Source: a virus (taxonomy: Duplodnaviria; Caudoviricetes). From it: a DNA stretch of 55,854 bases. Within the stretch, counting starts at the first letter, position 1, and each line of letters starts with the position of its first letter. Location: the IMG/VR virus record IMGVR_UViG_3300030370_000147, positions 1 to 55,854 of that record, one strand, 5' to 3'. Below the pieces are notes generated by a model. That model saw nothing but the letters and a program-made list of their open reading frames with translations. It searched no databases and was not told where the DNA came from. A program made the position numbers and the translations under genes. Shown here in pieces: positions 10,824 through 12,549 of the stretch.

Positions 10824-11031
10824 GCTGTTTCGAGGGGCATGTGACAGGATTCATACAGCCACTACGGATTTGTATGAAGGCTTGCATGGGGATGACGGAC
10901 TCCCAATCACCGATAGGGAGGTGGTGGCCAGCAAGCTGACTGAGTGGAGGCAGTGGATTAATATTGAAGTGGATTTAGTTAGACAATCCATTCGAGAACA
11001 CGAGGAGTATTTTGGACAAAAACCTCAGTAG
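10807..11031 (+). CDS. hypothetical protein
   Basis: 74-aa ORF overlapping both neighbours. Confidence 0.6.
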   Translation: MKELSELFRGACDRIHTATTDLYEGLHGDDGLPITDREVVASKLTEWRQWINIEVDLVRQSIREHEEYFGQKPQ

Positions 11032-11533
11032 GATACGCAGTTGGCAGCGTGGTAATAACGCAGCGAAGAGGTACGAACGTGCCAACCCTGAAATACGAAA
11101 GTCATCACGGGGTGAAGACATCTTTATGCATGTTGATTATTGGCATGATGACTTGGGTGTGGACGTCAAAGGCAATAATCTGCCTGATGAAATTTGGGTG
11201 GAGTTTAAGAATGTCAATGGCAAGAAAGGCTGGCTGTTTGGTGAAGCCACTACGATTGCATTTGATATGCCAGAACTAGCAGGGTTTGTAGTCGTTGATC
11301 GTAAAGACCTGGCTGACTACTGCAAAGAGAACGTAGACTTTTCTGCCACTGTTCCGCGCAAAGACGCATACAAGAAGGTGTATCGACGTCATGGTAGGCA
11401 AGACATGATAACTAAGCTGTGCTTAGAGGATCTTCAAACCCTTGATAGTTATCGAGTCATGGGGTACTGTCAGACCTACACACATCCAGCAGAATATTAC
11501 ATTTGTAGTATTAGCAACGAGGACATACCTTAG
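11012..11533 (+). CDS. PD-(D/E)XK-family nuclease-like protein
   Basis: HVDYW, VDVKG, WVEFKNVNGKKGWL motifs; start codon uncertain (TTG). Confidence 0.65.
   Translation: MDKNLSRIRSWQRGNNAAKRYERANPEIRKSSRGEDIFMHVDYWHDDLGVDVKGNNLPDEIWVEFKNVNGKKGWLFGEATTIAFDMPELAGFVVVDRKDLADYCKENVDFSATVPRKDAYKKVYRRHGRQDMITKLCLEDLQTLDSYRVMGYCQTYTHPAEYYICSISNEDIP
11498..11505 (+). promoter_or_regulatory. -7 promoter box TACATTTG upstream of candidate ncRNA
   Basis: Exact TAnnTTTG match; predicted +1 near 11510. Confidence 0.55.
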
Positions 11534-11635
11534 TGTCGCCATCCAGCACACCCCTTGCCTGATCGGGGTGCGGATTATGGAGATCAGGTGATGTTAGTGG
11601 GAGGGAGCAGGCAGGGTCAAAGCCGCTCCCTCTTT
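11510..11635 (+). ncRNA. candidate pseudoknotted structured RNA of unknown class
   Basis: 5'/3' closing helix, two internal hairpins, 10-nt loop complementary to 11582-11591, terminal hairpin. Confidence 0.5.
11601..11635 (+). terminator. GC-rich hairpin terminator
   Basis: GAGGGAGC(A)GGC...GCCGCTCCCTC followed by TTT. Confidence 0.55.
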
Positions 11636-11710
11636 ACACATTATACAAAAGTTGATGCGTACATTGCTCCTCATGCGAGACAAGCGCATAGATTTGGTTG
11701 ACATTGCGAA

Positions 11711-11738
11711 GAAGAGGGGGGCAACGGCCTCCCTTTTC
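11711..11738. terminator. probable bidirectional terminator between convergent arms
   Basis: GAAGAGGGGGGC-AACG-GCCTCCCTTTTC stem with G-U pairs, at the point where the + and - gene blocks meet. Confidence 0.6.
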
Positions 11739-12045
11739 AATTGCAGTCCTTTTGCCTGAGCTCGTCCACGAGAATCTCTAGGTGTGCAATGCGCTTCTCA
11801 GCATGCGTCAGCCTTAAGTTCTGCTCCGCATCATCAGGTAGGCTGCCCATCTCTCCTCGTGGCCACTTCACCCTGAAGTCAGAGTTCAGTTCTATCTCCT
11901 GGTTGTGTCGCAACGTTTCAAGCTCCAGGTTATTCAGCGAAGACATGATGGTAAAGTATAAGGTGACTGCAGCACCTACGCCCAAGACAATTTGAATCAA
12001 CCACTTGATGTTGATCCCCATGCTGGTGTTGTCGTCGAGATTCAT
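11737..12045 (-). CDS. membrane-anchored coiled-coil protein (lysis accessory/spanin-like?)
   Basis: N-terminal TM segment then coiled coil; downstream of holin. Confidence 0.6.
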   Translation of the reverse strand: MNLDDNTSMGINIKWLIQIVLGVGAAVTLYFTIMSSLNNLELETLRHNQEIELNSDFRVKWPRGEMGSLPDDAEQNLRLTHAEKRIAHLEILVDELRQKDCN

Positions 12046-12065
12046 AATGTTAAGCGAATGTTATG

Positions 12066-12073
12066 TACCTTTG
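12066..12073 (+). promoter_or_regulatory. -7 promoter box TACCTTTG directed antisense into the holin 3' end
   Basis: Exact TAnnTTTG; ATG 4 nt downstream. Confidence 0.45.
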
Positions 12074-12077
12074 TGAG

Positions 12078-12131
12078 ATGATTGAATTTATTATCTGTGT
12101 ATTTGGCCTGGCGGTCATGGTCAACGCTTGA
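12078..12131 (+). CDS. candidate 17-aa hydrophobic leaderless micropeptide
   Basis: MIEFIICVFGLAVMVNA*; overlaps the holin stop codon. Confidence 0.35.
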   Translation: MIEFIICVFGLAVMVNA

Positions 12132-12549
12132 CTTTTTCTACTGTTCGCCCCGCGAAGTATGCTCCGAATACCGTGAGCATGAGAATCTCTAACAGGTTGA
12201 TGTAGTTTTCTGGCGGCATAAACGATGGATCAATGCCGTCCCATATAGTTAGAGTCATATAGAAAAGGGAAAGGGAAATAAGTGTAACGGGGCGGATCAG
12301 CTTCGCCAGCTTTACATCCGATTGCGCATCTGCCTTCCATCGCTCGGTGACATTCTCTTGAGCCTCTACCTCTGCGTCCATGACTGCCTGGAAGCTCTCG
12401 CTGTCCAGGGTAGGATCCTTGTCCACCAGATTCTTCACCACCCCCAGCACGCCTCGGTCGGGCAGTACATCGCCCACCACATCGAGGACAGAGGGGGCCT
12501 TTTCGCGTAGCCACTGACCAACCTTTGTTTCCTTTATTTTTTGTGGCAT
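12121..12549 (-). CDS. holin (3TM/GTA-holin-like)
   Basis: VTERWKAD..SD...K.IRP then two TM helices ending GAYFAGRTVEK. Confidence 0.8.
   Translation of the reverse strand: MPQKIKETKVGQWLREKAPSVLDVVGDVLPDRGVLGVVKNLVDKDPTLDSESFQAVMDAEVEAQENVTERWKADAQSDVKLAKLIRPVTLISLSLFYMTLTIWDGIDPSFMPPENYINLLEILMLTVFGAYFAGRTVEKVKR

Follow-up and report, generated by a model that had tools for sequence, protein, structure and literature searches.

A candidate small non-coding RNA at the early/late gene junction of a marine Bacteroidota phage-like genome

Short RNAs that run from a promoter to a terminator are known from the junctions of phage gene blocks, as with oop of phage lambda and sar of P22, both of which are antisense RNAs that overlap a neighbouring gene. 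The type III antitoxin RNAs (ToxI) consist of tandem direct repeats of about 34-36 nucleotides (nt) upstream of the toxin gene, and the pRNA of phi29-type phages combines a conserved helix between its 5' and 3' ends with two loops that are complementary in trans, in a phi29-like small genome. Marine Bacteroidota phages are abundant in the sea; to our knowledge, phage-encoded small RNAs have been little studied beyond a few model phages, and hardly at all in this group. Here we analyse a non-coding element at positions 11534-11635 of the phage record IMGVR_UViG_3300030370_000147 from IMG/VR (55,854 bases, estimated completeness 87%), which we call the window when we mean the whole stretch of DNA.

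The element lies in a 203-nt gap (11534-11736), the sole sizeable non-coding gap of the window, which separates convergent early genes on the + strand from late genes on the - strand; an earlier note, made from the letters alone, had correctly placed it at this junction. We favour, tentatively and with somewhat less than even confidence, the reading that it is a short + strand non-coding transcription unit ending the early gene block, from which a small RNA is predicted. Host sigma-A polymerase would start near G11538, using a -33 TTTG (11502-05) and the -7 box TACCTTAG (11526-33), and early mRNA reading through would have this sequence at its 3' end as well. The small RNA would form a short GC hairpin with the core 11551-54/11565-68, and the hairpin loop would pair with 11582-89(91) as an H-type pseudoknot or as a competing hairpin of 8-10 base pairs (bp). 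The transcript would end at a terminator-like hairpin, T1 (at about 11636), with a second terminator, T2, as a back-up, giving a product of about 100 nt. We infer promoter use, RNA ends, pseudoknot formation and any function from the sequence. When the sequence was re-read, all the motifs that the earlier note had named were found in their places, and the parts of the region are as follows.

11498..11505, + strand: TACATTTG box; its last four bases, TTTG (11502-05), lie 20 nt 5' of TACCTTAG and are a candidate -33 element.
11510-16 and 11592-98, + strand: ATTAGCA and TGTTAGT, the two strands of a proposed closing helix (five Watson-Crick and two G-U pairs).
11522-26/11533-37, + strand: GACAT/GTGTC hairpin, letters confirmed.
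11526..11533, + strand: TACCTTAG box, of the form TAnnTT[A/T]G, overlapping a stop codon; the preferred -7 candidate, with a predicted +1 at about 11538.
11541-44/11572-75, + strand: outer part of a long stem, ATCC/GGAT, letters confirmed.
11549..11570, + strand: hairpin S1, CACCCC/GGGGTG (11549-54/11565-70), with a 10-nt loop, TTGCCTGATC, and the core CCCC/GGGG (11551-54/11565-68).
11555-64 with 11582-91, + strand: helix S2, the putative pseudoknot, loop TTGCCTGATC with GATCAGGTGA; eight Watson-Crick and two G-U pairs, Watson-Crick core 11558-64/11582-88.
11571-81, + strand: 11-nt linker between S1 and S2, the fastest-changing part, with six of the 11 body changes relative to L002.
11592..11598, + strand: spacer TGTTAGT; GTTAGT also stands right before the terminator of the relative L096.
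11599..11635, + strand: terminator-like hairpin T1, main stem 11601-08/11625-32 (8 bp), inner stem 11610-12/11622-24 (3 bp), then TTT.
11713..11737, both converging strands: strong terminator T2, loop GCAACGG, from the terminator scan.

The complementarity between the loop (11555-64) and the downstream strand (11582-91) had been pointed out in the earlier note, with the same count of pairs, and it holds up: none of 300 local shuffles reaches its score. The score is that of the best contiguous complement between a loop and the sequence downstream of it, for hairpins of at least 4 bp with at least three GC pairs and a loop of 6-14 nt. The 65-nt body of the element (11534-11598) scores 9.0, a value reached in 0 of 300 dinucleotide shuffles, and the body of its nearest relative, L002, behaves likewise (0 of 300). 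The complementarity is notable only because of its placement, in the sole non-coding gap and directly 5' of a terminator hairpin. As the earlier note had proposed, the element is non-coding and reads as a + strand RNA, since the G-U pairs of S2 would become C-A mismatches on the - strand. Sterically, nothing is unusual about a pseudoknot in which S1 has 4-6 bp and S2 7-8 bp, with two loop nucleotides and a linker of 11 nt; one that paired all 10 loop bases and left S1 intact would be out of the ordinary.

Relatives were gathered through the open reading frames (ORFs) on either side of the gap. For the 173-amino-acid (aa) ORF upstream, IMG/VR gave 13 relatives and metagenome contigs gave 104, 80 of the latter being kept; the 102-aa ORF downstream has 454, of which 80 were kept. 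A blastn search against 50,697 records of cultured phages gave no match to the element, and a blastn search (word size 7) with 11498-11740 against 93 loci gave matches in L002 and L015 only. The sole lineage carrying the same element is that of L002 (= L015 = L095 = L182), with 90.9% identity over 242 nt, and an exact 18-mer scan of viral contigs returned the L002 contig only. Over 3.4 kb, 10.6% of the positions differ between the window and L002. Within the body, the 28-nt block 11541-11568 has no changes; two of the changes fall in the 5' flank (11539-40), seven in 11569-80 and two in the downstream pairing strand. The last two keep S2 paired (11589 T>C turns a G-U pair into G-C, and 11591 A>G turns U-A into U-G). 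A change in the T1 stem (11608 C>T) retains the stem as G-U, and one at the T1 apex (11614 G>A) converts a U-G into a U-A in an alternative pairing of the loop that is described below. The long stem that the earlier note had drawn fares less well: 11569-70 (TG>CA) and 11574 (A>T) break three of its pairs without compensation, so that its lower and outer parts are lost in L002 and the CCCC/GGGG core alone survives. The homologues that the note had called for thus amount to one 91% lineage with pair-keeping changes in S2 and no two-sided compensation. The L002 data fit S2 and the S1 core weakly, as far as one relative can.

Further out, in L096, L097 and L003 (75% aa identity in the ORF), the element could not be aligned to that of the window by MAFFT, and this precluded a covariance model for elements of the window's type. 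Behind the same box at the stop codon, L096 nevertheless reads CGGG, a 10-nt loop TGCTCTTGAG, CCCG, TTAT, CTTGAGAG, GGGTTAGTAT and a terminator with U6. The strand CTTGAGAG complements the loop TGCTCTTGAG over 8 bp (six Watson-Crick, two G-U), which is reached in 5 of 300 shuffles. Two nucleotides between S1 and S2, an S2 that abuts the 3' strand of S1, and GTTAGT 5' of the terminator are common to the window and L096. This layout is the best support for the pseudoknot, which we regard as plausible; with three sequences that have the layout, there are too few for a covariation test. The pattern GTTAGT-N0-2-GGGAGGGRG was found in 106 viral stretches, and among these the terminator is completed only in the contig already known, in L196 and in one unrelated lineage without shared proteins. 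In an unrelated phage lineage, which shares no proteins (L228, L244, L263, L264 and L278), we also observed a TACATTTG box and behind it a non-coding region of some 200 nt, which ends in TTTTGGTTAGTGGGAGGGAG...CTCCCTCTTTT, that is, in the GTTAGT-plus-stem 3' module of the window's T1; the region has no Rfam match.

According to the excerpted text of PMC9723704, the -7 box of Bacteroidota sigma-A, TAnnTTTG, sits at -12 to -5 in Flavobacterium psychrophilum. In the promoter criterion that we applied, a -33 TTG is often found about 20 nt upstream of the -7 box. Boxes of the form TATATTTG or TATCTTTG, which match TAnnTTTG, stand 6-25 nt ahead of many late ORFs. The stop-codon box TACCTTAG is TAnnTTAG, one mismatch from TAnnTTTG, with a TTTG 20 nt upstream; it is a candidate promoter. 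In the relatives the box is usually TATCTTAG or TATATTAG (TACTTTAG in L002), and a TAnnTT[A/T]G box is present at the ORF stop in 30 of 67 distinct junction contexts, including 23 of the 25 from relatives with at least 59% aa identity; most relatives at about 50% identity have TATCTTTA in its place. Its position relative to the stop is -5, +4, +6 or +10, and for this reason we take the box to be independent of the reading frame. The box also occurs about 35 nt ahead of a protein gene (L005, L119-L124), and similar boxes stand 5' of other small RNA-like units whose upstream genes are unrelated (L018, L019, L024, L034, L036). Looking at these units on their own, we observed in L018, L019, L024, L034/L035 and L036 a promoter-like box, GTTACAC...GTG...TTCGC hairpins and a terminator. 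In the window and the homologues compared, TTTG or CTTG lies 20 nt upstream of the box, so that the TACATTTG box would supply the -33 element.

These data point to a start near G11538, at a candidate promoter, in preference to one at 11510. The earlier note had drawn an RNA of about 125 nt beginning at A11510, with TACATTTG as its promoter, closed by ATTAGCA/TGTTAGT and containing the GACAT hairpin, the long stem and the pseudoknot, and to this model we now give little credence. Every helix it proposes can be drawn, TACATTTGTAGTAT resembles the late-gene boxes TATATTTGTA(G), as TACATTTG resembles the late TATATTTGTAG..., and a box at -12 to -5, as the same excerpted text has it (PMC9723704), puts +1 at 11510. 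Yet 11498-11533, which holds the box and the first 24 nt of the proposed RNA, is coding sequence of the 173-aa ORF: TTTGTAG encodes conserved (V/I)-C-S codons, the TA is not conserved (L096 has TACACTTG), and no -33 TTG is found 19-21 nt upstream of TACATTTG. The strands of the closing helix are there, but the minimum free energy (MFE) fold of 11510-11640 lacks the 7-bp helix, and the 5' partner is missing in L096 even though GTTAGT is kept. The GACAT hairpin is likewise present, largely inside the ORF and without comparative support, and the outer long stem is the part broken in L002. With +1 at 11538, the small RNA would contain neither the closing helix's 5' strand nor the greater part of the GACAT hairpin.

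Sister phages put the locus in a broader frame. In L098-L110 the same box is followed by a different non-coding unit of 150-170 nt, which ends at a T2-type terminator. We drew its structure by eye: P1, a pseudoknot of the P1 loop with the strand right after P2, P1b, P2 and T2. In a five-sequence alignment 92.1% of the cells are paired, against 44-63% for slid controls, and 10 pairs have changed on both sides, a number reached in 0 of 500 shuffles, with the caveat that the structure was derived from the same sequences. The P1 loop, GCTAYN, pairs with NRTAGC after P2 (GCTATA/TATAGC, GCTATC/GATAGC and GCTACT/AGTAGC), and GATTGATTGAT is conserved before the terminator. A covariance model of this RNA, R1, recovers L098, L106, L109 and L110, which were not in its seed (E 1e-6 to 1e-11); its sole match in the window is the T2 module at 11694-11738 (23.3 bits, E 0.003), outside 11534-11635. 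No Rfam match was found for the sister RNA (e.g. L099:2026-2186). T2, which has 0 differences between the window and L002, is homologous to the terminator of the sister junction RNAs, and other relatives have still different non-coding units beside the same terminator. Given that sister phages and other relatives carry different units between box and terminator, the junction is, by comparison of these sequences, a slot in which the structured RNA varies while the promoter box and the terminator are conserved. Since the sister phages fill the slot with unrelated structured RNAs, the window's element would be an accessory RNA, and for a variable accessory cassette a role in trans, probably as a regulator or a protein decoy, is likelier than that of a housekeeping element. 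A bolder version, which we think rather improbable in its full form, would make the early/late junction of a large group of marine Bacteroidota podophages a dedicated RNA slot with fast turnover, in which box and T2 stay constant and the RNA between them is exchanged or diversifies. One such cassette would then be the window's RNA, with a target protein of the host or the phage on which it acts in trans (for example as an anti-defence decoy); diversifying selection would act on its linker and its loop/partner pair, and the loop would switch between 11582-91 and 11608-16.

Two further observations concern the units of this slot. The stretch 11659-11738 of the window holds a second small unit, in which the TACATTGC box, the ATGCG-AGACAAG-CGCAT hairpin and AGATTTGGTTGACATTG are followed by T2; TACATTGC fits the TAnnTTGY variant box given in the excerpted text of PMC9723704. 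A related hairpin with GATTT(T)GGTT and the same terminator is found in L096, L111 and L112-L114, and the unit looks, from these sequences, like a small RNA of about 65 nt that is more widely conserved than the T1 element. Its parts are as follows.

11659..11700, + strand: second small unit, TACATTGC box, hairpin ATGCG-AGACAAG-CGCAT (11673-89) and AGATTTGGTTG motif.

Downstream of homologues of the 102-aa gene, in L027-L033, L036, L043 and L044, some 230 nt of non-coding sequence are conserved, and on the strand of that gene a TAnnTTTG-like box comes before them; Rfam gave no match for this stretch in L027, L031 and L036, and no tRNA was called in L027, L031, L036 and L043. In the same position, L016 and L018 have a conserved element of about 85 nt with a TTCGAAT hairpin resembling a T-loop and a terminal helix of 6-7 bp. 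It looks tRNA-like; ARAGORN makes no call and Rfam gives no match.

To return to the element itself, it may be nothing other than the plain 3' untranslated end of the early operon, where T1 and T2 in tandem stop transcription before the late genes and the upstream hairpins are incidental or generic 3' stabilisers, with no promoter of their own and no function in trans. We consider this unlikely while giving it a substantial share of the probability, and a series of observations speaks for it or weighs against a dedicated small RNA. The layout is convergent, with two terminator-like hairpins, and T1, which the earlier note had taken for a strong terminator, is indeed a GC-rich hairpin (11599-11635) but has just three U 3' of its stem and was not called by the terminator scan. 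Across the 55-kb window, sites scoring at least 9 number two on the + strand and three on the - strand, near the chance frequency (six shuffled windows gave 0, 0, 0, 0, 2 and 2 per strand). The composite promoter pattern TTG-N19-21-TAnnTT[TA]G is found four times in the window, about as often as expected by chance, and TACCTTAG is unlike the late-gene box TATATTTG. The body, with 11 of 65 positions differing from L002, is more diverged than the flanking ORFs, and the pair-keeping changes in S2 are one-sided transitions, which often keep a pair by chance. The comparison with L096 was made post hoc, and its complement is in part a direct repeat of a near-palindromic word. No significant loop complement was found in L111, L112 (= L004) or L113 (= L114), where 47, 127 and 116 of 300 shuffles, respectively, do as well, and two plain hairpins make up the fold of L112; three of six distinct T1-type units (window, L002 and L096), or two of five lineages, therefore show the pseudoknot layout. 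The loop has, finally, a second partner, nine pairs (eight Watson-Crick, one G-U) between 11553-61 (CCTTGCCTG) and 11608-16 (CAGGCAGGG) at the T1 apex. A mere operon end fits less well with a stop-codon box that is kept independently of the frame and also stands ahead of a protein gene, with box-RNA-terminator units behind unrelated upstream genes, with a 28-nt block free of changes next to pair-preserving changes in S2 and T1, with the recurrence of the layout in L096, and with a clearly structured RNA in the same slot of the sister phages. We therefore keep to a predicted small RNA as our preferred reading.

The fold of this RNA is ambiguous, as the loop's second partner in T1 is equally good. 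Taken whole, the 131-nt region is unremarkable, being about two standard deviations better than shuffles on either strand (z = -2.0 on +, -2.6 on -). In constrained folds of the window, S2 is near-optimal (-37.9 against an MFE of -39.6), and in L002 the S2 hairpin is the MFE fold itself (-40.3, against -32.2 with S1 forced). A putative H-type pseudoknot directly 5' of a terminator, together with two alternative partners for the loop (11582-91 and the T1 apex) that could give two states, is also what invites the thought of a self-cleaving ribozyme or of a ligand-sensing pseudoknot riboswitch controlling T1. We hold this to be the least probable of the readings: pairing the loop with the T1 apex in a nested fold costs about 19 kcal/mol, the lineages do not share the sequence as they would a ligand pocket or a catalytic core, Rfam gives no match up to an E of 10 other than noise, and downstream lie only T2 and antisense late genes, with nothing to regulate.

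The searches for membership in a known family bear out the earlier note's view that the element stands outside those described. Rfam 15 gave 0 matches at the gathering threshold in the whole window and 0 in 17 related junction loci; at E up to 10, 11400-11800 gave two noise rows only, a plant microRNA and a Brucella small RNA, the former with 14.1 bits for a threshold of 79 and the latter with 12.3 for one of 218. ARAGORN found 0 tRNA or tmRNA genes in the window, and there are no tandem repeats in 11200-12000 at a minimum score of 30. An exact 18-mer (stem and loop) searched in one genome per species gave seven single-copy matches in unrelated high-GC taxa, with no arrays and no Bacteroidota. 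No positive evidence was found for the ribozyme, switch, type III antitoxin or pRNA-like functions that the note had suggested, there being no repeats, Rfam hits or arrays. A CRISPR-repeat mimic (an RNA anti-CRISPR) found no support, since exact matches in one genome per species showed no hairpin arrays. A duplex-energy scan against 81 phage start regions gave a best value of -42.8, inside the range of shuffled RNAs (-34 to -47). Small ORFs in the gap were rejected because of two 1-nt indels between T1 and T2 relative to L002, and a frameshift or read-through signal was dismissed by eye: S1 has no slippery heptamer 5-9 nt ahead of it and stands 15 nt away from the stop. A literature search listed no relevant paper.

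The large terminase (707 aa) is 41-48% identical to those of phages of Flavobacterium, Cellulophaga and other Bacteroidota (114 records matched, 68 of Flavobacterium and 15 of Cellulophaga). In keeping with the earlier note's assignment to a marine Flavobacteriia-type phage, these matches and the TATATTTG boxes ahead of the late genes suggest a marine Bacteroidota podophage-like genome. The + strand ORFs, up to 11533, include those for a Sak-type annealing protein, an exonuclease, a primase-helicase, an endonuclease-like protein and the 173-aa protein; those of the - strand, from 11737 on, include the ones for the 102-aa protein, a holin, two giant proteins, of which one has a crAss muzzle-like domain, a tail fibre, the portal and the terminase. 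Of 22 sequencing runs listed, none is recorded as RNA. Among the read sets X7, X8, X9 and X20, contigs from X7 (11367-11965) and X8 (11375-11637) are identical to the window over the element, with 0 variants, and X20 gave a single 157-nt contig (11697-11853), also with 0 variants.

This setting, after primase-helicase and nuclease genes, with several inverted repeats and a cumulative GC skew that peaks at 10-12 kb, would also suit an element acting as DNA, its interleaved inverted repeats being a protein-binding site or part of a replication origin. We judge it very unlikely: the turn of the GC skew coincides with the switch in gene strand, no AT-rich stretches or iterons were found, and in the window, L002 and L096 alike S2 depends on G-U pairs, so that at the DNA level its arms are not complementary.

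The gene that ends the early block is given below.

11012..11533, + strand: last early-strand ORF, 173 aa, stop TAG at 11531-33, C-terminus ...EYYICSISNEDIP*.

Its 3' end takes in the TACATTTG box, the 5' half of the proposed closing helix and the larger part of the GACAT hairpin. It matches no Pfam and no PHROG family. By eye it has D...(D/E)xK-like motifs (VDVKG, VEFKN), and the nearest Atlas clusters having a Pfam family show a weak link to NOV_C/PDDEXK families; from these two features it may be a nuclease. On the other side of the gap, between the 102-aa gene and the holin and in the opposite orientation to them, 12045-12192 (+ strand) holds a promoter-like region, GTTAAGCGAATGTTATG TACCTTTG, and then a tiny hydrophobic ORF (MIEFIICVFGLAVMV...). 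The motif and an 18-aa hydrophobic ORF are found also in L106 and L111, and the motif followed by ATG in L096. From its sequence, the ORF may encode a small membrane peptide linked to lysis.

Set beside the systems described at the outset, the window's unit resembles lambda oop and P22 sar in its plan, with a size of about 70-100 nt, its own promoter and intrinsic terminator (both predicted here), a place between differently regulated blocks, and no coding capacity. Unlike those RNAs, it overlaps no gene on the opposite strand, and its duplex scan of 81 start regions stays at the shuffled level. With ToxI, which is tied to phage-host conflict, it has in common a small, putatively pseudoknotted RNA and a terminator, but it lacks tandem repeats, a downstream toxin gene (the next gene converges) and an Rfam match. 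The phi29 pRNA is likewise encoded by a phage and about 120 nt long, its loops remain complementary even as the sequence changes, and its helix A resembles the 5'/3' closing helix of the earlier note; in our element, by contrast, the closing helix is not conserved, the genome is at least 55.8 kb with an ordinary 707-aa terminase and a portal, and there is no Rfam match. As the loop pairs with an adjacent strand 17 nt away, folding within one molecule is favoured over a pRNA-like association in trans. The preQ1, SAM-II and fluoride riboswitches offer a compact pseudoknot of hairpin loop and downstream strand right before a terminator, and differ in that the window's element has no Rfam match, no conservation of sequence across lineages and no regulated gene downstream. 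There is a likeness, too, to the sister RNA of L098-L110, which occupies the same slot after the 173-aa homologue, follows the same box, pairs its loop downstream and ends in the same T2 module, while being longer (150-170 nt) and having two extra hairpins. In our view the element is a plausible new, lineage-restricted phage small RNA, with a plausible pseudoknot. If it is merely a structured operon end, it is ordinary; if it is transcribed as predicted, it and the better-supported sister junction RNA would define a conserved slot for accessory RNAs and would provide concrete candidates for RNA-based regulation or counter-defence in marine Bacteroidota phages.

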